From IMG/VR virus record IMGVR_UViG_3300035698_024626, positions 12,818 to 76,817 of that record: a DNA stretch of 64,000 nt; one strand, written 5' to 3'. The notes under the pieces are model-generated. The model searched no databases and had not been told where the DNA came from. It saw nothing but the letters and a program-made list of their open reading frames with translations. Positions 1 through 59,511 of this stretch are shown piece after piece (the stretch's first letter is position 1; every line of letters starts with the position of its first letter). The stretch is from a virus. The position numbers were made by a program, and so were the translations under genes.

Positions 1-248
1 TCTTCGACAGGTTCGTAGGTCGCCCGGAATATATCCGGTCTGCACGGGTAGTGCTCGCCCGCAATTCCTCGGATCACATAATCCCCATCACTCACTAGCA
101 TATTCCCCTCTAGGGTATTCACAAAAAACAGGTCCGCCGAATCGTAGCGTATTTGATACTCTTCGCACAGCGATCGATCATACGTCCACAAGCCGGGCGT
201 GAACACAATAGCCTCAATGACAATAGGTTTTTTCCGGTACTTACTCAT
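1..248 (-). CDS. Conserved phage hypothetical protein (MSKYRKKPIVIEA... family), 3' end outside window
   Basis: Manual translation: MSKYRKKPIVIEAIVF...TLEGNMLVSDGDYVIRGIAGEHYPCRPDIFRATYEPVE. Not in the ORF track because it runs off the window edge. Confidence 0.75.
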   Translation of the reverse strand, partial: MSKYRKKPIVIEAIVFTPGLWTYDRSLCEEYQIRYDSADLFFVNTLEGNMLVSDGDYVIRGIAGEHYPCRPDIFRATYEPVE

Positions 249-507
249 CTGCTCGTCCTCCTACCATAGCAACCATTTCCTGTGGAATAGGAGACACACG
301 AGCGTTCTGATCTTCATTGTCCAAAGCCTCAATATCTTTCATGCAACAATTTTTATACTTTTTCTTACTACCACATAGACATAACCAATTCCTACCCCAT
401 TTTGCTCGTTTACGAGTAATGGGCATAGTCACACCAGCAATACGTCTTTTCAAACTTCGTTGCTCACTGGGTCTATCAACATCTCTAGACAACGGCCTTT
501 TCTCCAT
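241..507 (-). CDS. SEC-C motif (Zn-binding) small protein
   Basis: GRNWLCLCGSKKKYKNCC matches the SEC-C motif; the real start may be ATG 426. Confidence 0.7.
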   Translation of the reverse strand: MEKRPLSRDVDRPSEQRSLKRRIAGVTMPITRKRAKWGRNWLCLCGSKKKYKNCCMKDIEALDNEDQNARVSPIPQEMVAMVGGRADE

Positions 508-3292: not shown

Positions 3293-3400
3293 TTATGGGG
3301 AAGTGGTCTTTTCAGCAGGGGATGTTACTATGGTAGTGCTGGAACTGTGAGTTCTGCTACTATCCAGAAATACATAGAAAACCAGAAACACAATGACTAA
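3293..3400 (+). pseudogene. tnpA: C-terminal remnant of IS200-type Y1 transposase
   Basis: Translates LWGSGLFSRGCYYGSAGTVSSATIQKYIENQKHND*, the TnpA C-terminal helix with the catalytic Tyr (YIENQ). No start or HUH motif upstream. Confidence 0.8.
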
Positions 3401-4571
3401 CACCAAAGCATTCAAATACAGATTGTATCCAACCAAGAAACAAGAACAAGGTCTACAACAGACTTTGACCACTTGTAGGTTCTTGTATAACAATGCTTTG
3501 GCTCAACGAATTGACACCTACAAAAATACTCAAGAATCAGTCACTTATTGTGACCAAGCAAATACACTTGTAAAACAAAAGAACGACTACCAAAAACAAG
3601 TCCACTCACAAGTGCTACAAGAATCACTCAAACGTCTTGACACTTCCTTTGGGAACTTCTTTCGTAGAATCAAACAACAGAAGGCAGGAAAGAAAGTCAA
3701 AGCAGGTTTCCCACGTTTCAAGCCAGACCAGCGTTACAATTCGTTCTGTTACCCACAATCAGGTTTTAGATTAACCAACGATAGTAGGAGAATTACACTC
3801 AGTAAGATTGGTGATGTAAGACTCAAATATTCAAGACCAACAGAAGGTAAGATTAAAACTTGTAGAATTGTTCGTGATGTAGACCAATGGTTTGTGGTTC
3901 TAACTTGTGAGCAAGAAGTTTCTGAGCCACTCAAATCTACTAATCCTACAGTCGGTGTTGATGTGGGTATTAAGACCTTTGCTTTTCTTTCAGATGGAAC
4001 GCAGTTTGAGAACCCACGTCATACACGGAACTCAGAAGTTAAGTTAGCACAAACACAACGTAGATTGTCACAGAAAGTAAAAGGCAGTCAGAACAGAAAC
4101 AAACAACGACTTGAAGTTGGGAAGGTACATCGTAAAACACGTAGACAACGTGAGGATTTCTTACATAAGTTAAGTAGGGAGTTAGTAGACAATTACGGTT
4201 GTCTTGTGTTTGAGCAGTTAAACATTAAAGGAATGGTTCGTAATCACAAGTTAGCTAAGCATATAAGTGATTGTGCTTGGAGAAAACTAATTGAGTATAC
4301 TACATACAAAGCGGAGGAAGCTGGTGTGGAAGTTAGATTAGTTAATCCCAAGAATACAACTCAGATGTGTTCAAGTTGTGGTAAGATTGTTCCAAAGACT
4401 TTAGCAGACAGAACTCATGATTGTTCTCACTGTGGCTTAGTGATGGACAGGGATTTGAATGCTGCTAAGAATATATTAAGTAGGGTAGGGACTACCCAAA
4501 GTTACGCCTATGGAGATTTAACCGCTACTCAAGGACATTGTGTTCTTGAGCAAGTTGAGTCTGTGAAGTAG
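3393..4571 (+). CDS. tnpB: TnpB RNA-guided endonuclease (IS200/IS605 family)
   Basis: AFKYRLYPT N-terminus; RuvC residues GVDVG, FEQL and DRDLNAA intact; CSSCG/CSHCG Zn finger. Confidence 0.95.
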   Translation: MTNTKAFKYRLYPTKKQEQGLQQTLTTCRFLYNNALAQRIDTYKNTQESVTYCDQANTLVKQKNDYQKQVHSQVLQESLKRLDTSFGNFFRRIKQQKAGKKVKAGFPRFKPDQRYNSFCYPQSGFRLTNDSRRITLSKIGDVRLKYSRPTEGKIKTCRIVRDVDQWFVVLTCEQEVSEPLKSTNPTVGVDVGIKTFAFLSDGTQFENPRHTRNSEVKLAQTQRRLSQKVKGSQNRNKQRLEVGKVHRKTRRQREDFLHKLSRELVDNYGCLVFEQLNIKGMVRNHKLAKHISDCAWRKLIEYTTYKAEEAGVEVRLVNPKNTTQMCSSCGKIVPKTLADRTHDCSHCGLVMDRDLNAAKNILSRVGTTQSYAYGDLTATQGHCVLEQVESVK

Positions 4572-15068: not shown

Positions 15069-16298
15069 TTAGTTCAAACTACACGGATGTAATTCAAGAC
15101 CTAATACTTCTTTTTCCTGCTTCTTAGACTGGCACTGAACCGAAGTTCTGCAACCTCCAATCTCCACAGGCGTTTTGCAAAGCAAACGAGCTTCGCTAAA
15201 TTTCTGAGTGTCCCTCAGTATTTTTGTTCCTACATTTCTTATATTTACAGCAGCGTTCAAATCTCTATCCATCACTTCACCACAATCCAAGCACTTGAAC
15301 TCTCTATCTTTCAGTGTTAAGTTTTTGTTAATCCATCCACAACCACTACAAGTCTTAGATGATGGTTCAAATCTATCAATCTCAACAAGTGGTTTACCAC
15401 TCCATTCTGACTTGTATCGTAGTTGTCTCTTGAACTCAAACCAACCACAATCTGAAACTGCCTTTGATAGACAATGGTTAGACATAATGCCCTTAATGTT
15501 CAAATCTTCCATAGCAAATCCTTCATACTTGGCTATTATATGAGCAGTTGCTTTGTGTTGAAAATCTCGTCTGACATTTCTAACCTTTCGATGTAGTCTC
15601 TGAACTTTGTTACGCTGTTTACTTCTATTGTTACTCTCTTTCTGCTTTCTTGATAATCTTCTCTGTGCTTTCGAGAGTTGTTGTCCATACTTATTGAGTG
15701 TTTTAGGATTTTCTATGACACTCCCATCGCTCATAGTGGCATATGTCTTAATCCCTACATCAATGCCAACCAGTAAGTCTTGCTTACAAATTGGTTCTTT
15801 GACTTTGAGTTCCACATTTACGGCACAATGCCATTGCTCACCATCTTGAGAAATAGTAAGATGTTTTACTTTTCCTTTGATTGGTCTGTGCTTAACCCAC
15901 TGAATTTCTCCAATCTTAGGAATGAAAACAAAATGCTTTCCTATTCTAAACTTCTGAGGCACAGCGAAACTGTCGTTTTGCTTGCCTTTCTTCTTAAACA
16001 CAGGAAACCGCTTGGTCTTACTGAAACAGTCTTTGAGTGCTCTATCTAATTGACGGGCTACCTGCTGAAGTGATTGACTAAAACTCAGTTGAAGAAAATC
16101 GTGTTCCTTCTTGAATTGTGGAAGTGAAGTAACCATATCGTGAACAAATACGAACTTCTTTTCGTTTTCGTATTTGTCTTGATTTTGTTTAAGAAGAGCA
16201 TTCCACAAGAAACGAGTATTACCACCGTGCTGTCGTAAGGCAGCAGATTGTTCCTTAGTGGGATAAAGTCTAAACTTGTATGCTCTTCTAATCTTCAC
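15069..16298 (-). CDS. tnpB: TnpB RNA-guided endonuclease (IS200/IS605 family)
   Basis: RAYKFRLYPT; RuvC residues GIDVG, MEDL and DRDLNAA intact; CSGCG/CLDCG Zn finger. Confidence 0.95.
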   Translation of the reverse strand: MKIRRAYKFRLYPTKEQSAALRQHGGNTRFLWNALLKQNQDKYENEKKFVFVHDMVTSLPQFKKEHDFLQLSFSQSLQQVARQLDRALKDCFSKTKRFPVFKKKGKQNDSFAVPQKFRIGKHFVFIPKIGEIQWVKHRPIKGKVKHLTISQDGEQWHCAVNVELKVKEPICKQDLLVGIDVGIKTYATMSDGSVIENPKTLNKYGQQLSKAQRRLSRKQKESNNRSKQRNKVQRLHRKVRNVRRDFQHKATAHIIAKYEGFAMEDLNIKGIMSNHCLSKAVSDCGWFEFKRQLRYKSEWSGKPLVEIDRFEPSSKTCSGCGWINKNLTLKDREFKCLDCGEVMDRDLNAAVNIRNVGTKILRDTQKFSEARLLCKTPVEIGGCRTSVQCQSKKQEKEVLGLELHPCSLN

Positions 16299-19474: not shown

Positions 19475-20101
19475 CTAATTTTCATGGTTCAAGATTTTTT
19501 GTATGGTCGATCGACAAACACCATAATTGTGAGCCAATTCCCTTTGACTCAATTTTGAAGCTTTAATTGCGAGGATTTGATCTGATGTAAATTTTCGACT
19601 ATATGCAGGTATTTTTTTTTCACATGGATTGGGCACATGACCCCACACTGTTTTACCTCGTAGCGCCAAAGAAATGTTCGGTTGCGATACACCGTATTTC
19701 TTTGCTAACTGAGCCTGATTCATCTGCCCAGTACGATATAATTCACGCATTTCAACTACGTAAACCTCAGTCAATTTGCTTCTGGGGTGTTTTGAGCCGC
19801 GTATACTGCCAAGCCTGATCGTATCATCAGCATTCTCTCTGGATGTACCATATCTTAAATTCTCTGGGCGCGCATTGTTTTTGTCACCATCAAGATGCCG
19901 GCATTGTAAGCCCTTGGGCCTGGGTCCATAGAATGCTAAACAGACGAGCTTATGAACATAATGTTTACTATTCTGACGAACCGATACTCTGGGGTAACCT
20001 TCTTTATTGTAGTTCCATTTCAAGATATAGCCCCTTAGACCCCAAATGTTCCCATCGGAGTCTGCAAAATAGCCAGGATACTCAGGAATCGCTTTCTTCA
20101 T
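19475..20101 (-). CDS. HNH homing endonuclease with C-terminal HTH repeats
   Basis: YVHKLVCLAF...CRHLDGDKNNARPENLRYG; two helix-turn-helix-like repeats. Confidence 0.88.
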   Translation of the reverse strand: MKKAIPEYPGYFADSDGNIWGLRGYILKWNYNKEGYPRVSVRQNSKHYVHKLVCLAFYGPRPKGLQCRHLDGDKNNARPENLRYGTSRENADDTIRLGSIRGSKHPRSKLTEVYVVEMRELYRTGQMNQAQLAKKYGVSQPNISLALRGKTVWGHVPNPCEKKIPAYSRKFTSDQILAIKASKLSQRELAHNYGVCRSTIQKILNHEN

Positions 20102-20513
20102 ATATAATTATACGTTCAAGTCGATCGTTTGTTTTGATTTTTTTTGGTCAGTTGTTGAAAACTACAAGGCGATTGATATGGTGGTCGGGAAAGTGTCACC
20201 CCCCTTTTTTTCTTCCTCCTTAGTCGGCGAAGTGCGAGAAAGAGTGTAAACGAAAAGTTGTAGGTCGTTTGAAAATGGAGCCTACTATGTTTCGCACCCC
20301 TTACGTTATAGGACCATGTAATGTTATCGGAATCTATTTGTATTATACGCCGCCCCCTCCCACATCCAGGTTATCGGACTACCATCCACCAAACCTACTT
20401 ATAGGACTATCTTGCACAAGGTGAGTTATAGGACCATCGAGCATCCTGAGTTATCGGACTGTATCCTACCTTGCTGGACATTATCGGACGAAAAATAAAT
20501 CTTGGGATTCACC

Positions 20514-20542
20514 TTGACAATCGGCAACAGGGATCATATAAT
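20514..20542 (+). promoter_or_regulatory. Consensus sigma70 promoter P1
   Basis: TTGACA-17 bp-TATAAT, with an upstream A-tract. Confidence 0.9.
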
Positions 20543-20810
20543 ACATTGTAGAAACGAGGCTTTTATTATCGGAGGATAGAAAAATGACTATGATACTGGG
20601 AAGCGCTGTTATGGTTGTTATCGGGGTTGTTTGGTTTAGGCACATAGCCAAAGACTTATAGGACGACAATGATGAAGACTTTATTCGGACTAACAGGAAT
20701 GGGGTTGGTTATCGGAACCTTGACCGCGATGGGGTTATCAGACCTGTTCGGACGTATGTTATCGGCGATGAGCATCTAGAACCGAATAACAAAGAGAAAG
20801 GTAGGTTATT

Positions 20811-20936
20811 ATGAGACGCTTGCTATTGTTGGTATGCTTGGCTATAGGACCATGCTCTGTATGGGCCGATAACGAGGGAGTAGGGTTTATAAGCCCGATA
20901 GGAGGATATTATCAGGCGTGGAGAAGCAATGGGTAA
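20811..20936 (+). CDS. 41 aa peptide with signal-peptide-like N-terminus
   Basis: MRRLLLLVCLAIGPCSVWADNEG...; upstream AAGGTAGG; stop overlaps the next gene. Confidence 0.45.
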   Translation: MRRLLLLVCLAIGPCSVWADNEGVGFISPIGGYYQAWRSNG

Positions 20937-21141
20937 AGCACGACTTGAAATTCCTAATTATGGGACGGCAACTGGATTCTCGGACGTACTAGCTATGGGT
21001 TATGGGAGGTTACTTGCACTGACGTTATCGGACAATGAGGGATTCGTGGTTGTTACGTTATCGGACAGAAGCGAGAGAGTTATCGGACGTGACGCTCTGA
21101 CCGGCGAAATTACTATAGGACTTTTAATTAAGGAGCGATAA
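20929..21141 (+). CDS. Early hypothetical protein
   Basis: RBS GGAG; 70 aa; contains about six copies of the repeat motif. Confidence 0.6.
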   Translation: MGKARLEIPNYGTATGFSDVLAMGYGRLLALTLSDNEGFVVVTLSDRSERVIGRDALTGEITIGLLIKER

Positions 21142-21317
21142 TATGGGATCAATATCGGACATTGAAGCTAGACTGGAAAATTGGAAGATGCGATCATAAT
21201 GTTATCGGACGGAGTTGAAACACTGGATTCTCGAACCTCGTCCGATAGCGACAAAGAATGTGGACATTATATTCGGACGCCTAATATCGACGACTAGCCC
21301 GATAACCAAAAGGAAGT

Positions 21318-21342
21318 AGGTTCGATTTTATCGGACCTTTTC
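21318..21342 (+). terminator. Rho-independent terminator whose 3' arm is the repeat motif
   Basis: AGGTTCGAT-ttt-ATCGGACCT followed by TTTC. Confidence 0.75.
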
Positions 21343-21643
21343 CTTTGCCCCGGCGAAACATTATAGGACGTTCGGCGATTCGGGATGTTATCGGACCCTT
21401 CTCGGTCGGGCATTATCGGACTTGAAACCGTAAGGTTATAGGACTATGCTGGGGGAAAAATTATCGGACGAGGCTGCGTTTATCGGACCTGACGTATAAT
21501 AGCTTACCCTGTGTGTTGTAGGGCATGTTCTGATAATATCGCAACAGGTCCGTTTTACTTAATTATGCGGACCAGGACGTTACTTGCCGATAATAGCCGC
21601 GATTCTAGTCTAAAAACGCGGAAACTTTTTTCTCACATTTCAC

Positions 21644-21672
21644 TTGACGTTATACGATAACAAAGCTATAAT
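21644..21672 (+). promoter_or_regulatory. Sigma70 promoter P2
   Basis: TTGACG-17 bp-TATAAT, with an upstream T-tract. Confidence 0.85.
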
Positions 21673-21718
21673 AGAGTATAGAATCGAACGATGGATTATC
21701 AGACCTAGGAGAAACGCG

Positions 21719-22069
21719 ATGGGTAGGATTATGGGACGAACGGGAAGTCAAGTCTTATCGGACAGCGCCGCTCGTTATCGGCTGGCGCGTAGTCGGACGG
21801 TAAAATGCCAACATTATCGGCACGGTCCGAAAAACTGGGATTGTTGGGTAGTTGGGCCATTTCATAGTCGATATTATGGGACTACTGGTTTTGGGACCAC
21901 CCGAAGTAAGGCTAAAGTGGCACTTGAATACTTACTAGCCACAGAGTTCGGTTTTATCGGGCGACTAATGTTATCGGCAATCGATTCCGCCGATAACGTA
22001 GGAATCCGTTATGGGGCGTTAGATACTCCGATAACGATACAAGATTTATTGGGACGTGCCGGCGCGTAA
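21719..22069 (+). CDS. Early hypothetical protein (116 aa)
   Basis: Start reassigned to ATG 21719 after AGGAG; lies between P2 and a terminator. Confidence 0.65.
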   Translation: MGRIMGRTGSQVLSDSAARYRLARSRTVKCQHYRHGPKNWDCWVVGPFHSRYYGTTGFGTTRSKAKVALEYLLATEFGFIGRLMLSAIDSADNVGIRYGALDTPITIQDLLGRAGA

Positions 22070-22085
22070 TATAGGACTAAGAACC

Positions 22086-22110
22086 GGGTTCGATTTATCG
22101 GACCCTTTTC
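22086..22110 (+). terminator. Rho-independent terminator, paralogous to 21318-21342
   Basis: GGGTTCGAT-tt-ATCGGACCC-TTTTC; the outer A-T pair of the first copy is G-C here. Confidence 0.75.
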
Positions 22111-22759
22111 TTCGCGCCCATGACGATATTATCGGACCTGTGGGACGGCTGCATTATCGGACCTAAACCAGAGTAGATTTATCGGGCCTTTGAGCGGCAA
22201 GTTTTTATAGGACGTGACGTATAATCATTTGGCCTGTGTGCTCGTATCCACGTTTTTATAAGCCACGACCGAGAAAATCGATCACCCTCACAGCCTTGAA
22301 TCGGAACTATTATAGGACCGGCGGAGAAATATTATCGGACTACAGCCAGTTTTAGTTATCGGACGGAGCTGCCATTATCGGACGTGGCTAAGAATCGTTT
22401 ACTTCGTGTGATAATAACCCTCCATTTGACCAATTAAACGCCTCTTTTGTGTTATAGGGCGCATTTCTTATAGGATGTGGCCAATAAAATCGATTTTTTG
22501 CCGGTTATAGGACCAAAACGGGCGATATAGGACTAGCATAACCAGTCTTATCGGTCGGTCCGGATAAAGGGTCCGAGAAAATAGCCCATTCTAGCCTAAA
22601 AAACGTGTATAGTTATGGGAATACGCGATTGTGGCGCGTGAACAGCGTTATTATAGGAGCCTAAAAAGGGACGTGTTTCCTATAGGACCAGGACGTAGTT
22701 TGCCGATAATATCCCGCCTGGCGCTGTCAAAAACGGCGATTTTTCTTTTGTATAACAAT

Positions 22760-22788
22760 TTGACCCTCCCGTATAACTATGGTATGAT
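22760..22788 (+). promoter_or_regulatory. Sigma70 promoter P3 (extended -10)
   Basis: TTGACC-17 bp-TATGAT with TGn extension. Confidence 0.75.
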
Positions 22789-23007
22789 CTTATGATAAGA
22801 GAAACTGAGGTTCGATAATAAAAGGCGTTTTCGCGCCCGATTTATCGGACACCCGCCCCACGGGTGTTATGGGACGCAACCGTTCTGGTTATCGGTCCCA
22901 CCTTAGTCCGAAAAAAAACTTAGTCTGATAACGCGATCTACTCGTCCTATAATCTGGGGCGGCGTAGTCACGGGTTATAGGACGGGGTTCAGTTATGGGA
23001 GTCTACC

Positions 23008-23331
23008 ATGAGTGAAACCGATACCATGACCAGTCAGGCAACCGTTGTAGAGTTTGGTGCTGACGATCTGATTCGAGTCGCTAAGGCTTACGCTGAAGCC
23101 AAGCGTATTGTCGATGCCAGTAGTCGGTACGACAATCTCGAAGATGCTGTCGCTGCGCTTACCGAAGCGTGGGAACAGTTGGAGAGTCAGGCCAATAACG
23201 GCGGAAGGTACACTCCGGCTAAGGAGTTGGGGTTTGGGTCTGATAACGCGGCGACCATCGCTGATGCGTTATTGGGACGTAAGCCGACCGTCGGCGCTAC
23301 TCGCAAGGCGTTTGCCGCATTGGGCAAGTAG
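23008..23331 (+). CDS. Early hypothetical protein (107 aa, Ala-rich, helical)
   Basis: RBS GGGAG; downstream of P3. Confidence 0.7.
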   Translation: MSETDTMTSQATVVEFGADDLIRVAKAYAEAKRIVDASSRYDNLEDAVAALTEAWEQLESQANNGGRYTPAKELGFGSDNAATIADALLGRKPTVGATRKAFAALGK

Positions 23332-23334
23332 TCC

Positions 23335-24690
23335 GCGTGTCTCTCGTACCGCGCTTTGGGTATAGTCACCGCTCCGAGCGCGGACCGACAGACATGTTAT
23401 AGGACCGTCCGGTAACGACGGACGTTATATGGCGCGCTAGACCGATAAGTCGCGCTGGTTCGATCTGTCAGTCGGGCACGAAGTCCGATAAGTGCGGGGG
23501 GGCGATTCGTTATCGCTAGAACCGTCAGTCGCGCAAAGCGTGCGGATTTAGTCAACGGATTATCGGTCTTAGGGTCTATAGTCTGTATCCGTCCGTGAGC
23601 ACGTCTAAGCCGCTCATTCCGGGAGGTCGATATAGGCAGAGAGTCCGCGCCTAAGTCGGTGGAAACCGTCTTCGCGAATCATCTGGGGTAGCGCCTAGTG
23701 TGACGGATGTTAGTAGCGTAGTCCGAGCAAGTAACCGATGGTAAAGCGTGCTTTTTTTGACTCCGAAAATCGTCTAAGTAGGCTATTGGTCTGCCCTTCG
23801 CGGGTGGGGGTCGTAGTCAACATTCGTTTTTCCCTATATCGCAAATCGCCGTAGGGATAGGTCGTCAGGCGCGCCGCACGTCAATTTCGTCACAACGATT
23901 TCACTGAACAATCTACAATCGCTCGACGCCAAATAGCTATGCGGCAAGGGCCGTTGGTTTAGTGGATAGTGTCGGAACTTCTGTTGTTCGTCTGATGCGA
24001 CTGGTGTTTACCTGTAGCAAGGTACGTTCTGGTCGGGACGCTGAACGACTACGGCGCAACGGCGAGCGTAAAATCAGGTCAAAAACCGACTGTCCGGTCT
24101 GGTGGCACGCTCCGAAACACTCCGTTGTAAATCAAGACTTCATAGAAACCATCCACGGCGTGCGACTGGCAGTATCAGTCAGGCTGTGGGTGTAAGTCAT
24201 ATAAACTGTGTGCGCACCGAAAGGTGTGGGAGCAATTGGGTGGCCCGGCTAATAACTGGGGCGCTCAGTTGTCGATTAGGATCGGTGGGGATTCTAGTCA
24301 ACTTTTCTGTAGGATGTACGACGATGAAAGCGGTCATACGGCCGCGAATAATCCCGCATCCGAAAGCTATGTTGTCGATACTGGTGAGACGGGTAGCCCC
24401 GCCGTAGCGCCGGGTTCAAGTCCCGGAAAGTCCAAGCCAGTTGCCAAGTATGGGGAAGTTCCCCAAGCGTTATCGACAGCATAGCCAGGCGCGCCTAGTG
24501 CTGATAAAGTCACAAAATTGGGTTTGGCCGACTGGGGAGTCGCAGACCTCTTAGGATGTGCTGGGCGCGTTTGGGTATGCTGTTAAGTATTAGGAGTGGT
24601 ACCGAAGTTTCCCTAGTTTTTGAACGTAAGTTCATAATCGAGCGCGGGGTTAGCGTCACAATTATCCTTCATATCTGTAGTTACAAACTT
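23335..24690 (+). ncRNA. Candidate large structured non-coding RNA (family unknown)
   Basis: No credible ORF; GC-rich; helix 24475-24498/24561-24584 with G-U pairs on the + strand; GNRA hairpins at 23657-23668 and 24214-24227; T-arm at 24410-24426. Confidence 0.6.
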
Positions 24691-25571
24691 TAGTTTTCAC
24701 TCTTTCTTGTACCCCCTAGTTATCACACTACAAAAACTACACCCCTACAAAAACACACTTTAGGGGGTCACCAGAACACTTTCGGGGCGTTTTAATTAGT
24801 CTAGTCTTAGCGTGCATCTGTCCCAGGCGCGCCAAGAGAGAACTGTTCTGTAGCCTTTTTGGTGGTTGGTGCTCTTTTGCTTGTAGGTGGGGTATGGGGT
24901 AGATTGGATAAAGGGGGTTTACAGAGTCGTGAGAGCGGCTTCTGGCACTGCAAACAGACAATCGTCACCAAGTCCGTTTACCCCGTATATGTGGGATCGT
25001 CAACCACTCCGTGGGAATCTAAACCACTTTGTGGGAGTGAAGTACGATAGGGAAAAACACATAGTATCGTCGGATTCCGGTAGTATTATCTGTCGGGCAA
25101 CAATACGTATTTCAGGGTACAAAAAATGCGACAAGAAGAGTACGAATATCACCTTGCTCTAAGATGGCACCAACTCAAATGGGCGGGTTGGGATATAGCC
25201 AAGTGGATTAGAGCGGGATGGTGTCCTCAACACGGAATAAGGTTTTCTCGCAAATGTCCCGTTTGCACAGAAATGAAAGACCGAACGGAAACCGAACAAA
25301 GGATGAATGTAAAATGAAACTTCGTAACATCTCTTTCTATAAGAATCCCCTCGATCTTGATATCCGACCGCACTTACCGGCAACCAGTCCAATCCTCTAT
25401 TACATTATTAATAGGAACATTATAGTAGGACATTTTCACAAAAAACACAAAAAACACGAATGGTATCTCTCGCTAGAACCCAATGTAAGTATCTCCCCCA
25501 GTCTCGTAGTTAGCCTTTACGAACGACTCATATCTTCCTTGTCTTGCTATAAGTTACCATAATCCCGCCTG

Positions 25572-25906
25572 ACAGCGTGGCAAAATGCCCCTGGCGCACA
25601 ATTGCCCAAGACCGAAATGGTCAAGGCTTGTGTTGATCCGGGGGTGTCTTGTTGCGCTGTTGTGTATAATCCACAGAAGGAGGTGAAAACAATGGGAAAG
25701 AAACTATGGTTGTGTGCGTGTATACTAGCGCTGGCATCCTGCGGTTGTGTAGAGAAAAACGATTCGTGCCCCTACACAGAATTCTTTAGTAATCTACCCG
25801 GTTTAATTATCAGTGATTAACAGCATGATAAAATACCCCTGACTCGTAGTTACCCAAGACCGAAACGGTCAAGGCGACGGTAGTCGGGGGTATCTTGTTG
25901 CGCTGT
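25572..25906 (+). repeat. Two copies (25572-25660, 25820-25906) of an ~88 nt long-hairpin element
   Basis: Shared ACAGC..AAAAT(G/A)CCCCTG...CCCAAGACCGAAA(T/C)GGTCAAGGC...GGGGT(G/A)TCTTGTTGCGCTGT. Confidence 0.8.
25692..25820 (+). CDS. Small lipoprotein-like peptide
   Basis: RBS AAGGAGG; MGKKLWLCACILALASCGC lipobox-like. Confidence 0.6.
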   Translation: MGKKLWLCACILALASCGCVEKNDSCPYTEFFSNLPGLIISD

Positions 25907-26182
25907 CTAGGGAGAAAACTGATGATCGAAGCTGTAAAAATATTGCGAGCCCTCATCGCTGAATCGCCGAAGAAAGAGATAGGCTCCCCCCCCTTGGTGC
26001 ATTGAGGCGAAGCATGGGTAATAATTACCTGATTAATTGTATAGGGTTAATCATCAAGGATTGCGTTAAAAAGTGGCCCGATACAGCTGAGTTTCTGGAA
26101 GAGATAATACGTCAAGCGAAAAAGTAGGAGATTTCGTCCCGAAGGCTGCAATCTAGTCCACGCATCCTAGCCAGTTTGACGT

Positions 26183-28116
26183 ATGTCAAATCAAAAGGAA
26201 GTCAAAATGAAAATCAACAACATAGGGACAGTCTCTACAGATAGTAACCCCGGCGTCGAAACACGGTTCCCTGTCGGAACAAGAGTGATAGTGCCAAATT
26301 GGCCAACAGGCGGAAAAGTAATGGGGCATCACGAAGGTTCTGTGATAGTAGAAGTGTTGCCGATATCATACTGTCCATCACAACTCCAACTCGATTATGG
26401 ACAGTAGTCTACACTCTTTTTTGTAGGGAACGAATTCCAATGATTGATAGATAAAAAATCGTAGTTTTGTGGGATTGGTGGGGACAGAAATTTGATGGGT
26501 CCACCGGAGATGCAAAATCAGCACGGAAGAAAGTCGGCAGCATGAGCGAAGCTTACGATTTAGTGCACAAAATAAAACTCCGCTATGCAGACCGGCCCAC
26601 TTTGGCGTCGGGCAATCTTCTGGCCGTGAAGATAGTGGTCACTCATATCATGTACCCCGCCGAGTAAACTTGTACTCTAAAAGAAGTAAGCCATCGTTTT
26701 AGTCTTTACTCTTTCTTGTAGGGAAAACCATGGAAATCAAATGTACCAACAGCGAACTGGCCACAAAACGTTTTGACGAACTATTAATCGGCGATGCATT
26801 TCGGTTGCCGTTCGGACACAATCCTATGATTAAAACCGAAAAATGCCAACAAGTTGTCCCAGATGGCGCACCCATATTAAGGAATGTCTTCAACCTCGGA
26901 AACGGCGGATTTACACGGCTTAGTGACTTGGAACGTAAGTTCATAAAGGAGGACCAACGTGCATTATTGTCAAGTGTGTACTGATAAATCGTTTGCACGA
27001 CAAGGAAGGTGGGGATAAACATAAAAGAAATCCAGCTACCGTGCTATGGAATCTGTGTGACCATCGTTGATGGGAGTGGGAATATCACCCATAGCGGACT
27101 AGAAGAAACATGTCCATATTGCGAAGATACGGATTGCTGTTACAGTTGTGACCTATCGGAGGCAGTATGGGATTGGGACGTTCCCGATCGCCTAAAGTTC
27201 AACGGAGCAATTACTGGCATCATGTCTATGATCCTTGCCCACGCCTGTGCTGGAGTGGATATTGAATCACCGGAATACATTGAAGGTATCGAAACCGCCA
27301 TCCAGACTAGCAACGACAATCTCTAACAGGTTCATTAGAAGTCGTCTAGACAAGGAAAGTGGGAGTAAAAACATATGGGACAGGCTGTGGTTGACGGTAA
27401 ATTAGAGCCTGGAACATATTACATCCGAATTATTTGGTAATCGACGGAACACGTATTTCAGGGTACAAAAATCGCCTGCAACAACAAGTGGAGGTAAGGA
27501 CGATGACCGCTGAAGACTTGGGCACAGCCACTAGGCGACGGGCTATTCTGGATTTGCTGTGGAACTCTCTATCAGCCGACCCAGAGAACAAAGACCGCGT
27601 GCGTACCGGATGGGGCACCAAAAGACAAGAGGGACTCGTGGCGTGCATCGAAAACATCATGGGTGACAAATTTGTTTTCGTGCTCGAAGATACCATGTTC
27701 ATTTTTGTCAGCATCCACCACACCCTAGCAGGAGCAATCGCTGCTTTTATCAGACACAATCGTGTAAAAGATGAGCACAATATTATTGTGGACAAAGTGG
27801 ATGATGGTTGGTTCATATATTCACGCAAAGAGCCTGGAATCAAGTGGTCAATATATAAAGAAGAGATACAAGAATGAAATTTGAAGTTTCAGATATTTTT
27901 GCTTAACAAACTAACAGAAAGGACAGAAACATGACTCTTGCTCAAGTTTTCATTATCGGAATGGGTGCTGGTGGACTTTTCATCCTAGTCCGCGACATAT
28001 CGCTTTGCCTAAGTACTAACGCGAAAGGGCAAGTTTTTGGGATTGCGAGGTATATATCCGGGGCTGTAATAGGAGGAATAACGGGCGTAGCCGTTAACCT
28101 TCTTTGGCATCTATAG
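26183..28116 (+). other. Cluster of small early hypothetical genes (26207-26407, 26730-26984, 27009-27326, 27503-27877, 27931-28116)
   Basis: Co-oriented short ORFs, most with an RBS; the last is a two-TM membrane protein. Confidence 0.55.
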
Positions 28117-28159
28117 TCTTAGCAATGAGAATTGACGCTCGATTCAAATAGGAGACTGC

Positions 28160-29766
28160 CCATGATTGACGACGGAGGACCGGCGTTTCCGGTGACAGGA
28201 ACTTGTGGTTACGATCCAGAATATGAACGTAAAATGTCGAGCCGAGCAAAAGAATTGCCTGAACTAACAGGCTTGGAACGGTTAGGGCTCTTAGGGGTTG
28301 TCCACGGGTAAGTACCCGTAGAAACGGCGATGGCCAATCTCCGGTGCTCTCGGCAGGATGTAGAGGCGTATGTTTGGCGCGAGAAACTACGTGCAGCGGC
28401 AGACCGAGAGAGTTATGGCGGGATCACGGCATGATCCTCTGCGCCATGGCCATCGTCATCGAACTGGTTGAATATCGGTACGCACAACGCGGTATCCCCG
28501 CAGCGCTTGTACGATACCCAACTTGGCGAGATGCCCTCGCCGAATGGGAGCGGTTGACGGAGAAAAGCGATGGAAATTGACGGGCAAACGATCACGCAGA
28601 TACGTGATGAACTGCGTAAAGTAAGGCGCGAACGCGACACGCTGGCGGGCCAGCTAGAAGCAGTAGAAGCGGAACGTGACGCTTTAGGGTTGGACCTGGA
28701 AAGGGCGGAAACTGAACTCAAAGGTGTCCAGGCAGATGCCACAGCTCGGCGAAGGTCCCTTGCCGAATGAGAGCGACTGACGGAGCAAAAGTAATGAGCG
28801 CTAAACTTATTGCCACGTTTAAGCACATGAGCATTACACGGTATGGTCGAATCGGCGTAGAGGAAAGCTATACGATCCGTTCGCAGATTCTCCTCGGCCA
28901 TATACGGTTTTACAGCCCGTGGGGACAATGGTGTTTCTTTCCCTTTGCAGATACGGTCTGGAGCGAGGACTGTCTTGCGGACGTGCGGAAGTTCATGTTG
29001 GGATTGAAAACATGATGGGAGCGAAAAAACCTAAGAGCGTAGCCGCTCTGCTGGACAACTTGAAGGCGGAGTATGCGGTCGTCGAACGGGGTTGGAAGAC
29101 GCGGGTGGCGCTGGTCACAGTGGAGAACCAATGGCGACAGTTAGAGATGGAGTGCTTCGAGGCCAGAATACGCTGCGAAACAGCGGAGCGCGAATATGAG
29201 AAAGCCAAAGTCGCTGTCGTGGGTGCGCGGGGCCGTCTGCGCAAACAGACTGCAAGGGTCGCGAAAGCTGGGAGGGCGGTTACTGATCTTCCCGCTCCCG
29301 AAACCGAAGCGATTGCCACCCAGATCGCCGAATGGGAGCGGTTGATGAATACAGTGGAGAACGGGACTGGTTAAAACAGGAGACAGAATGATGACAGTAA
29401 AAGAATGCATGATCAGATATTCCGCAGGCGCGCGATTGGTATTAGAAGCGGCCATACGGAAAGTTGCCCTCAAATGGATCAATGCGAACTGTCCGGATGC
29501 TTGGTTCCGGGCAGCGTTCGCGAGGGAGACCCCCGATGCCTAAGCAGACGGCGGAGAACGTGGTAAAGGCTCTAGAGGCGGCCTTTGGTTGGTTGCTTCC
29601 TTCGCTAACCTGGAACGACCAAGGCCGAACGGCCGGGAACGTTCTATGGACGAAGATAGGCAACGTCAAGTCTGTAACAATTTTGAGATCAACGCCAACG
29701 GTGGCGGGCTTACGGATAAAGTTGTCCGACGACTCCGAATTCGTGATCACCATTGCCAAGGGATAA
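28160..29766 (+). other. GC-richer block of overlapping small genes (incl. 28570-28770 coiled coil, 28767-29015, 29012-29374, 29536-29766)
   Basis: ATGA overlaps and visibly higher GC than the flanks. Confidence 0.5.
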
Positions 29767-30078
29767 CACTATGTCAAATGTATTTAAGGTAAAGTTTGAA
29801 TCAGCTTTCCCGGCCACCGGCAGATTGCAAACAGAAATAATCGCATGGCTAAGCGACAGTATGGTGGTGAAAGTTGATGGCGAAGATTCACAAGTAGCCG
29901 TCGATATGGTGCGGGCTTATGTTTTGTCCAAGGTAAATAAAGCATGTTCCGCTGATGCTCCGATAAATACAGTCAAAGGGTTTCATCTCAGAGGTGTGGA
30001 GTTTATAACTCAGATAGACTTAGAGTAATAAGAGTTCTTGTGCTAAAATCGTTCACACTCTTTCTTGTAGGGGAAAAC

Positions 30079-30336
30079 ATGAAAACTAACAAGGTGAATA
30101 AGAAACTTGATGTAACTTTTGACGAACTATCGATCTCGGCAGCATTTCGGTTACTGTATGGGGATGTCCCCATGATCAAAACCAAAGAACTACAAATGTT
30201 AGTCCCCGATTCGAACTGTATAAAGGAGCAGGATCACTGCACCAAAAATGCCTTCAACCCCGAAACCGGTGAACACGCTTGGATTTTAGGAGCCCAGTTG
30301 GTGGTCCCCCTTCCAAATGCAGAATTCCGGTATTGA
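30079..30336 (+). CDS. Hypothetical protein, paralogue of 26730..26984
   Basis: FDELSISAAFRLLYGDVPMIKTKELQMLVPD vs FDELLIGDAFRLPFGHNPMIKTEKCQQVVPD. Confidence 0.7.
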   Translation: MKTNKVNKKLDVTFDELSISAAFRLLYGDVPMIKTKELQMLVPDSNCIKEQDHCTKNAFNPETGEHAWILGAQLVVPLPNAEFRY

Positions 30337-38917: not shown

Positions 38918-39439
38918 ATGAGATTTGCTGACATCCCACAAATGACTCAGGCAAACTATAGTTGCCATCATCCCCTCCATATGCTCCCTTGGGCTATCGA
39001 TAACTACCAAAACAAAAAACTTGCTCCCCTTAATATGAACCCCGATTTCCAACGGGCACATGTCTGGACACAAGAACAAAAAACTCGCTATATGGAATTC
39101 ATCCTACGAGGGGGAAATTCTTCTAAGGACTTCTATTTCAATTGCCCTGGATGGATGGATAACTGGGAAGGGCCATTTGAACTTGTGGATGGAAAACAAC
39201 GACTTGAGGCATGTATGGGTTTTATGTCTGGCAAAGTGCCTATTTTTGGTGGACTCCGCGTCCAAGACTTCTATAACGAACCTTTTAACATTCACCTTTG
39301 TTTCCACATCAACAATCTAAAAACACGGATAGAAGTTCTCCAATGGTACTTGGACATAAACTCTGGTGGAGTTGTCCACACCACCGACGAACTTGAAAAG
39401 GTCAAAAAGCTTCTAAGACAAGAAGAGGAAAGATTATGA
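38918..39439 (+). CDS. DUF262 (ParB/Srx-fold) domain protein
   Basis: NPDFQRAHVWT and LVDGKQRL motifs; stand-alone, no nuclease domain. Confidence 0.85.
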   Translation: MRFADIPQMTQANYSCHHPLHMLPWAIDNYQNKKLAPLNMNPDFQRAHVWTQEQKTRYMEFILRGGNSSKDFYFNCPGWMDNWEGPFELVDGKQRLEACMGFMSGKVPIFGGLRVQDFYNEPFNIHLCFHINNLKTRIEVLQWYLDINSGGVVHTTDELEKVKKLLRQEEERL

Positions 39440-59046: not shown

Positions 59047-59109
59047 GGAAATTCATATGAAAATGGATTGGCTAGAACTTGAAACACGAAGACGTTAGAG
59101 GCAAAGCAA

Positions 59110-59511
59110 ATGGATGAATACCACCAAGCTGGTCTTGATAACGAAGTAATCTGTTTCACTGGGAAGAGTCCAAAACCCAGAAAAGAAATGACAAAAATAG
59201 CCAACCAAGCAGGCGCTACGGTAAGTAATTCTATCACCAAAAAAGTAACTATATTGGTAATGGGTAATCTGAATTCTACATCAAGCAAAGCTGTGAAAGC
59301 CCGAGCCCTCGGAATACAACTCATTACTCCAGAAACATTTCTTCAATTGGCTGAAAATATGTCTTGGTCCGATGGTTTGAAGGAAGCGCATGGCATGCTA
59401 TACGGGAAAAACAGCCCAATAACTATTAATAAACATACTAAACACCATAGAAAAGATCAACAATCCAAAAAACAAGGACCGCCACGTAGACGAGTAATAT
59501 TAGATAAATGA
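59110..59511 (+). CDS. Stand-alone BRCT domain protein, duplicate of the ligase C-terminus
   Basis: EVICFTGKSPKPR...AGATV..S.T.K.TILV...SSKAVKAR shared with ligA. Confidence 0.85.
   Translation: MDEYHQAGLDNEVICFTGKSPKPRKEMTKIANQAGATVSNSITKKVTILVMGNLNSTSSKAVKARALGIQLITPETFLQLAENMSWSDGLKEAHGMLYGKNSPITINKHTKHHRKDQQSKKQGPPRRRVILDK

Follow-up and report, generated by a model that had tools for sequence, protein, structure and literature searches.

A conserved, unusually dense array of an oriented 9-mer at the transcription divergence point of an uncultured salt-lake phage

Introduction

Multi-site arrays for one DNA-binding protein are known as operators, stoperators, iterons, centromeres and the stop-signal boxes of phage T5. 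The repressor of mycobacteriophage L5 (cluster A) acts as a monomer on asymmetric 13-mer stoperators, with more than 20 oriented sites per genome (PMC9283540). Here we describe a domain (20305-23570, + strand, 36-37 exact copies) that is saturated with the 9-mer TTATNGGAC in an uncultured phage of ~165 kb from a salt lake. The DNA analyzed, referred to throughout as the window, is a stretch of 64,000 nucleotides corresponding to bases 12818-76817 of a 76.8 kb IMG/VR record (IMGVR_UViG_3300035698_024626, here G000; CheckV completeness 46%).

The element resembles the L5 stoperators in its short asymmetric word, and the L5 sites lie in promoters and short intergenic spaces with an orientation tied to transcription (PMC9283540). 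This tie is also seen in the group of ~160 kb phages to which the window belongs, but not in a second, YuA-like group that carries the same word. Stoperators are distributed genome-wide in temperate phages, whereas the 9-mer is confined to one domain of 3-5 kb at 7-11 copies per kb; its rate outside the domain equals chance, and no repressor or integrase was seen. By analogy, the monomeric L5 repressor is the closest precedent for an array wired to promoters.

A further point of comparison is the injection stop region of phage T5, where untranslated repeats are better conserved than the neighboring open reading frames (ORFs) and include eight 9-bp DnaA boxes (10.1101/866236). Both loci are conserved non-coding repeat zones beside early genes, both are composed of asymmetric 9-bp words that are binding sites in T5 and putative binding sites here, and the words have a TTATN start in common; in some T5-like phages, T5 included, an HNH endonuclease gene is inserted alongside, as it is in the window. 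The eight T5 boxes are arranged in fixed pairs inside long inverted repeats and match TTWTNCACA, whereas the arrays described here comprise 37-60 copies of TTATNGGAC with neither long inverted repeats nor canonical boxes.

Middle promoters of phage T4 carry the MotA box, a single 9-bp word near -30, with a good -10 element and without a -35 element. The likeness lies in a 9-bp word upstream of the -10 element at promoters that lack a -35 element; the MotA box is single, whereas at our locus whole arrays precede the proximal copy, which covers about -27 to -19. Iterons and centromeres (P1 oriR/incA, P4 ori/crr, F sopC, R1 parC) consist of 4-20 regular units of 11-43 bp beside rep or par genes. 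They too present many direct repeats to one protein and often overlap promoters, but their unit size, regularity, number and rep/par neighbors are not found at this locus. The p6 protein of phi29 forms a multimeric coat with a period of ~24 bp on the early control and origin region; it reads bendability and starts at the genome ends. The likeness is to a coat of such a period over an early control region, but p6 reads no word. We know of no described system that combines a 9-bp word, a density of 7-11 copies per kb across 3-5 kb, a single prevailing orientation, conservation of the word alone, and sharing across lineages with almost no genes in common.

Results

A nine-base word is concentrated in a single oriented domain

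The window contains 42 exact copies of TTATNGGAC, against 2.1 +/- 1.5 in dinucleotide-preserving shuffles. Thirty-six of the 42 fall within 20306-23491, and 34 of these are on the + strand; when the domain is defined as 3.5 kb it holds 37 exact copies, 35 on the + strand and 2 on the - strand. Across the whole 76.8 kb record this amounts to 10.6 exact copies per kb in the domain and 0.068 per kb outside it, the latter being the rate predicted from base composition. There is no second cluster in the record, and the 12.8 kb beyond the window add 0 copies. The Poisson P for the enrichment is ~5e-67, and P for the strand bias is ~1e-8. One-mismatch copies number a further 40 (26 +, 14 -), and their density is 11.4 per kb in the domain versus 0.7 per kb outside. 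Among these, T2 and G7 are invariant, position 5 is free, and change is tolerated at positions 1, 6 (G to A), 8 and 9.

Conservation is limited to the nine bases of the word; the flanks are random and the spacers are unrelated to one another. Start-to-start spacing is irregular and not helically phased, with a range of 19 to 422 bp, and when three genomes are pooled it has a mode of 25 bp (22-27) and minor peaks at 16-18, 33-35 and 51 bp. Tandem Repeats Finder (TRF; minimum score 30) returned 0 rows, and thus detected no tandem repeat in the array. An array of clustered regularly interspaced short palindromic repeats (CRISPR) was rejected on the basis of the 9-bp core, the spacings of 19 to 422 bp and the copies inside ORFs, as CRISPR repeats are 24-48 bp long with a constant period. 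A cluster of DnaA boxes (TTWTNCACA) was also rejected, as positions 6-9 of the word are GGAC; canonical DnaA boxes number 7 in the window, where 7.9 are expected, and 0 in the domain.

The domain lies where transcription diverges. Genes to the left of 20.1 kb are transcribed leftward and include an HNH endonuclease gene and, further left, glycosyltransferase, terminase-like and portal-like genes; genes to the right are transcribed rightward. The minimum of cumulative GC skew, at ~19-20 kb, coincides with this divergence point. A+T-rich DNA is represented by a single 60-bp stretch of 73% A+T at 20101.

Much of this had been anticipated in an earlier note made from the letters of the window. Its figure of about 37 exact copies, mostly on the + strand, is the number that we count in the 3.5 kb domain, and its figure of about 70 near copies has the correct order of magnitude, given the 40 one-mismatch copies. 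The irregular spacing with unique sequence between copies, the divergent gene layout, and the view that the repeats are not a tandem repeat, CRISPR or DnaA boxes all agree with the results above, and the k-mer density check that it proposed shows that the word is not equally common along the record.

The word is maintained at the same place in diverged relatives

Deposited phages provide no near DNA match to the window, and in the nearest cultured phages the ligase and AAA ATPase are only 30-32% identical. For the metagenomic sequencing runs, the data consist of assembled contigs and not reads. Four other salt-lake runs have contigs of their own that cover the stretch with zero differences, one of these contigs corresponding to 20268-23325, and 16 salt-lake metagenome runs contain at least part of it, with no RNA run listed as containing it. 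In the contigs of the four runs, word depth rises from about 2-3 on the left of 20138-20283 to 5-7.7 on the right, although contig depth cannot rank parts of a stretch; this step near 20.15-20.27 kb could reflect a variable HNH insertion, the border of a repeat or of packaging, or low-depth noise.

Analogous arrays, which the earlier note had proposed to look for, are present at the syntenic place in at least six related contigs. The 160 kb genome G001 (96% complete) has 25 copies in 2.9 kb, the 119.6 kb G002 has 60 copies in 5.3 kb, the 46.7 kb fragment G003 (28% complete) has about 27, and the ~166 kb contigs L378 and L379 have 25 and 23, respectively; in G004 (160.7 kb, 97% complete) a contig end cuts the array and only the first cluster is present. 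The density in G000, G001 and G002 is 7-11 exact copies per kb. Proteins of these relatives share 30-90% identity with their counterparts in the window, mostly 40-70%, and the genes that flank the domain on either side are colinear. The array DNA of G000, G001 and G002 cannot be aligned, with blastn matches restricted to coding and promoter islands of 64-80% identity. The retention of the word within DNA that is otherwise unalignable implies that the word is selected for itself, while the positions of its copies turn over. Throughout the ~160 kb group the orientation of the copies follows transcription (35:2, 24:1, 55:5, 21:4 and 18:5).

Arrays are placed between terminator-like hairpins and promoter-like sites

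The arrays in the window are positioned between terminator-like hairpins and matches to sigma-70-type promoters, and the same order of terminator hairpin, array and TTGACC-17-TAGAAT is found in an unrelated phage (G005, locus L111). A compact module of the form motif-N10..17-motif-N6/7-(-10 hexamer)-N3-TTTRSCYTGTGTG occurs twice in G000 and also in G001, L378 and L379, with either the proximal copy or the -10 hexamer degenerate in the latter three; it is kept across the four genomes although the surrounding arrays are unalignable. Copies of the downstream element of this module also occur outside the arrays without the word. Three strong sigma-70-type promoters of G001 and G002 are each preceded by a copy whose end lies 33-34 bp upstream of the -35 element. 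Neither the placement between terminators and promoters nor the fixed register to the -10 hexamer had been noticed at the first reading of the sequence.

Array 1 (20306-20489, +) lies in the divergent intergenic region and comprises six exact copies at spacings of 65, 28, 27, 25 and 30 bp. The nearest copy ends 24 bp upstream of a consensus sigma-70-type promoter, TTGACA-17-TATAAT (20514-20542, +), which is followed by a run of small ORFs of 25, 36, 41, 70 and 18 aa with Shine-Dalgarno sites (20585-21200, +). The 70-aa ORF (20929-21141, +) has a homologue in G002 with 44% identity, and contains 4 exact copies in frames 2, 0, 0 and 1. The first of the seven exact copies of array 2 (21328-21488, +; spacings 33, 27, 25, 23, 25 and 19 bp) forms the 3' arm of a terminator-like hairpin with a T run (21318-21338, +). 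Array 2 leads into a promoter module without a -35 consensus, motif-N10-motif-N6-TATAAT (21495-21500)-N3-TTACCCTGTGTG (21461-21515, +; family D1). Beyond this, a hairpin and T run (21597-21633, +) close an untranslated stretch of ~130 nt and are paralogous to 22685-22750 (family D13); a consensus match to a sigma-70-type promoter, TTGACG-17-TATAAT, follows at 21644-21672 (+).

The ORF of a 116-aa basic protein (21719-22069, +) contains 3 exact copies (frames 1, 0 and 2) and several near copies, and copies within the two conserved ORFs thus occupy all three frames. Downstream, a terminator-like hairpin (22086-22105, +) holds the first copy of array 3 (22095-22213, +; 4 exact and 1 near copy), which runs into a second promoter module, motif-N6-TATAAT (22220-22225)-N3-TTTGGCCTGTGTG (22186-22240, +). 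Array 4, with 4 exact copies, and a third D1-type module, motif-N6-AAGAAT, occupy 22310-22410 (+). Another terminator-like hairpin (22722-22738, +) precedes a consensus match to a sigma-70-type promoter with a TG extension, TTGACC-17-TATGAT (22760-22788, +). In the right fringe (22842-23491) there are 6 exact copies (4 +, 2 -) with fading density, and the word fades beyond the ORF of a 107-aa helical protein (23008-23331, +).

The 3' modules at 21569-21640 and 22685-22750 are paralogous, each with GGACCAGGACGTnnnTTGCCGATAATA, then a hairpin and T run, then a strong promoter; they could be the ends of small RNAs. The folding of the two untranslated stretches is no better than that of shuffles (z = -0.69 and +0.10), and the window has no Rfam family match and no tRNA genes. 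A second repeated element, CACTCTTTCTTGTA, has 5 copies in the record, at window positions 20233 (-) and 24698, 26412, 26707 and 30056 (+). Two copies immediately precede a Shine-Dalgarno site and ATG, one leftward-pointing copy lies at the domain's left border, and the element looks like another class of promoter or leader.

The same word forms arrays in unrelated phages

To survey the word more widely, IMG/VR was scanned for two nearby copies, which returned many single matches together with about two dozen loci of 8-37 copies. Gene content divides the multi-copy phage loci into at least three groups: the ~160 kb phages to which the window belongs; a group of ~60 kb phages whose large terminase is 53% identical to those of Pseudomonas phage YuA and Sphaerotilus phage SN1; and a third with no cultured relative. 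In a control scan with the reversed word, all spacings were multiples of 3 in 26 of 26 multi-copy loci, which are in-frame coding repeats, whereas about one third of spacings are multiples of 3 in 23 of the 24 loci of the real word. As the control yields coding repeats only, the irregular non-coding arrays are specific to the real word. In the YuA-like group orientation is mixed, often a + run followed by a - run, and is mostly opposite to transcription.

Several other features accompany the arrays. The HNH_3 endonuclease gene of the window (19475-20101, -), which encodes two helix-turn-helix modules, lies 200 bp to the left of the array, and HNH genes of the same hidden Markov model (HMM) family are found 0.2-1.5 kb from arrays in three further phage lineages (G005 59108-59506, L053 2702-3181, L033 9828-10346). 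This is one of the few families common to the array-bearing lineages, and its position may reflect only homing into long intergenic regions. Positions 241-507 (-) of the window encode a small protein with a SEC-C-type CxCGSGKKYKxCC motif, which is conserved in the group and also present in other array-bearing phage loci. The array of the complete YuA-like phage G005 (L111 12380-12500) adjoins a second repeat family, AGGGTGGGTTGG x8, and that of L024 (8940-9000) adjoins CACTATATATAGTA-like repeat units.

A full-text literature search for the word gave primers and unrelated matches only. A scan of bacterial genomes for three copies close together found 106 loci, spread over many phyla; we dropped the idea of a universal binding word in bacteria, as many of these loci are perfect or coding tandem repeats, which may match any 9-mer. 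Loci from Planctomycetota have a tRNA or transfer-messenger RNA (tmRNA) gene, 3-4 copies, and then a divergent integrase-like gene. At L140, L159, L166, L172, L198, L211 and L221, from metagenome-assembled genomes (MAGs) of Planctomycetota and others, a tRNA-Ser, tRNA-Ala or tmRNA gene is followed by 3-4 copies of TTATCGGAC spaced at 22-23 bp; the next gene encodes a protein of 484-548 aa that has no Pfam match and is grouped with tyrosine integrases in a protein atlas. These copies may be the arm-type sites of an integrative element. In Neobacillus (G008), Fredinandcohnia (G010) and Porphyromonas somerae (G009), TTATCGGAC is 4-5x above the reversed control genome-wide and is found both in small dispersed clusters and in 21-bp arrays, one of which lies between cccB and ftsE; this looks like a dispersed repeat element. 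One Anaerolineae genome and one Thermoguttaceae genome show no genome-wide enrichment of the word. The bacterial occurrences are separate phenomena and are uninformative on the host of the phage.

Candidate binding proteins

The earlier note had offered the stand-alone DUF262 ParB-fold protein encoded at 38918 as one candidate binder. This gene (DUF262/GmrSD_N, PF03235) is found only in G000 and is absent from G001 (96% complete), G004 (97% complete), G002 and G005, all of which have arrays, so that the candidate is not supported. There is no ParB_N in G000, G001, G002, G004 or G005 (the ParA and ParR families were not searched), and no DnaA C-terminal domain is encoded. AlbA_2/Schlafen proteins adjoin some bacterial arrays but are absent from the phages, and the integrase-like protein of L172 has no relative in the phages.

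Two proteins are encoded within the domain itself. The 116-aa protein is conserved within the arrays of G001, G002 and G003 (46, 42 and 34% identity); its model has a predicted local distance difference test (pLDDT) score of 54, and Foldseek gave no match at E <= 0.001. Of the two, the 107-aa protein shows the stronger conservation and always closes the array in related genomes, at 55-62% identity, with at least 278 metagenomic relatives. Its model has a pLDDT of 48, and by eye only, which is not a result, its C-terminal part could be helix-turn-helix-like.

Other features of the phage genome

Two full-length TnpB (IS605 OrfB) genes are present in the phage genome (window 3393-4571, +, and 15069-16298, -), with metagenomic relatives of up to 92% identity. 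To the right of the domain, window 23400-30300 has few long ORFs, and its G+C content is raised in part, to about 0.50-0.53 near 22-25 and 27-30 kb; conservation of this region in G002 is limited to a few small ORFs. The wider stretch of 23.4-48.8 kb has no counterpart in the contig of G001, the ends of which fall there. G001 (IMGVR_UViG_3300014914_000003, 160,023 bp) is also found in an NCBI MAG labelled Chloroflexi bacterium (locus tag DRJ03_00885), which may be a host hint or a binning accident.

Discussion

Taken together, our data show that the domain is a real, conserved and unusually dense cis-element. We propose, with a probability of roughly 40%, that it is an array of many binding sites for a protein that recognizes its DNA sequence specifically, acts as a monomer and controls early transcription. 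The asymmetric 9-bp word, the unconserved flanks and the flexible spacing of ~25 bp imply that the protein probably binds as a monomer. Action at the level of DNA is favored by the differences in orientation between phage groups, by the location of arrays after hairpins and before promoters, and by untranslated stretches that fold no better than shuffles. An array wired to promoters would explain the placement of the copies, their fixed register and the selection on DNA. The earlier note had described the domain as a high-density protein-loading zone, and this general description remains the best fit to a word that is kept in diverged DNA, in all three frames and in varying orientation. The specific forms that it listed (origin, centromere, packaging or terminus signal, coat or decoy) are candidates only; ParB_N, a DnaA C-terminal domain and, in the domain, canonical DnaA boxes are all lacking, and no physical end was mapped on the contigs.

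Under the proposed promoter-wired array, one sequence-specific protein would recognize the copies, with many occupied side by side, and form a nucleoprotein zone over the control region where host RNA polymerase starts early rightward transcription. Promoters that lack a -35 element but have a copy 6-7 bp ahead of the -10 hexamer would be switched by the protein directly, which could either substitute for -35 recognition or block the promoter. The role of the upstream arrays would be to increase occupancy locally and to insulate one short transcription unit from the next. We infer from the sequence both that a protein binds the word and that it acts on transcription; it may activate or repress, and it may come from the phage or from the host.

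A number of observations weigh against this proposal. No binder of the word was identified, and the 116-aa and 107-aa proteins have no Pfam or PHROG family and only low-confidence folds. The promoters and terminators are consensus matches and not mapped sites; the overall promoter scan does not rise above shuffles (22 vs 16.6 +/- 4.2), and the fixed register is found at only some promoters. Sites also lie inside genes, and 37-60 sites over 3-5 kb is, to our knowledge, far beyond what promoter control is known to need. The convergent + + + - - - layout of the YuA-like group looks more origin-like. BLAST comparison of the ~160 kb group with the complete YuA-like phage G005 found HNH endonucleases and one unannotated stretch of ~100 residues as the only shared proteins, and a search of G005 and the other array loci with 212 family HMMs contributed nothing beyond SEC-C-motif peptides and a few small unrelated proteins. 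Since unrelated phages have the word in common but almost no genes, a host-encoded binder is a serious alternative.

Other explanations for the domain differ in how well they account for these data. A replication origin, copy-control or partition locus, in which iteron-like sites for an initiator or centromere protein would melt or pair DNA with the aid of the adjacent strong promoters, is doubtful. The oriented direct repeats with unrelated spacers, at the transcription divergence and the GC-skew minimum of ~19-20 kb, are consistent with it, although the skew switch is confounded with gene orientation; so is the first array of the YuA-like group, where + then - runs resemble the opposed halves of oriC and AGGGTGGGTTGG x8 adjoins, and Group C arrays likewise adjoin other repeats. 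On the other hand, iterons are helix-phased repeats of 17-22 bp at ~22 bp, whereas here the core is 9 bp and the mode 25 bp, and the domain extends over 3-5 kb and 37-60 sites with genes included. The only A+T-rich DNA is the single 60-bp, 73% A+T stretch at 20101, there is no ParB_N, DnaA C-terminal domain or, in the domain, canonical DnaA box, and no initiator gene was recognized beside the arrays, where the neighboring ORFs are without family. That the domain has no function, as an assembly artefact, a decayed tandem duplication or a product of chance, has a negligible probability. The identical contigs of four other runs dispose of the artefact, an objection that the earlier note had itself raised along with a decayed duplication absent from relatives; the latter is contradicted by the 0 rows from TRF, the unrelated spacers and the arrays maintained in relatives with unalignable DNA, and chance by the Poisson P of ~5e-67.

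We consider it quite unlikely that the domain marks a genome end or serves DNA entry, as DNA that enters first and on which a host or virion protein pauses or anchors entry, protects the end from nucleases, or starts packaging, after the first-step-transfer model of T5. A cluster of strong host-type promoters is usual for a leading end, and T5-like phages keep untranslated repeat regions with eight 9-bp DnaA boxes on the DNA that is transferred first (10.1101/866236). TTATNGGAC has TTATN in common with the DnaA box TTATNCACA, but the last four bases of the word are unlike every DnaA box variant. The contigs of four near-complete relatives end in the domain or within 0.5-1.7 kb of it; these ends are scattered and have no common sequence, which fits assembly trouble in a repeat-rich variable region, and the contigs of G000 and G002 continue through both borders. 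The terminal repeat of G005, at 99 bp, is as long as an assembly overlap, and the depth step at 20.15-20.27 kb in four runs is a weak hint from contigs that carry no read ends and whose depth cannot rank parts of the stretch. A role in RNA is very improbable; here transcripts with many UUAUNGGAC copies would be a sponge for an RNA-binding protein, as CsrB is for CsrA. The word contains a GGA core, in the ~160 kb group its strand bias agrees with the way the genes are transcribed, and the untranslated stretches terminate in hairpins with T runs. The orientation of copies relative to transcription differs between phage groups, being mixed or opposite in the YuA-like group, which argues against such a role. 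The densest arrays are also the least likely to be transcribed, since they follow terminator-like hairpins and precede the next promoter; array 1 lacks a strong rightward promoter upstream, and the untranslated stretches have neither better folding than shuffles nor an Rfam match.

A broader possibility, which we judge unlikely, is that the word is a landing code shared between phages. If so, at least three unrelated lineages would load one conserved DNA-binding protein, possibly a hijacked host factor, which would coat kilobases of the DNA that is expressed first as early-region chromatin that gates entry, protects DNA or times the switch from early transcription.

The phage clade concerned is large, with the 107-aa marker alone accounting for at least 278 metagenomic relatives. 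No member of it is in culture, and the element thus offers a way into how these phages start infection. The binder, once found, would make up a new pair of regulator and site, and could reveal a host factor exploited by several phages.

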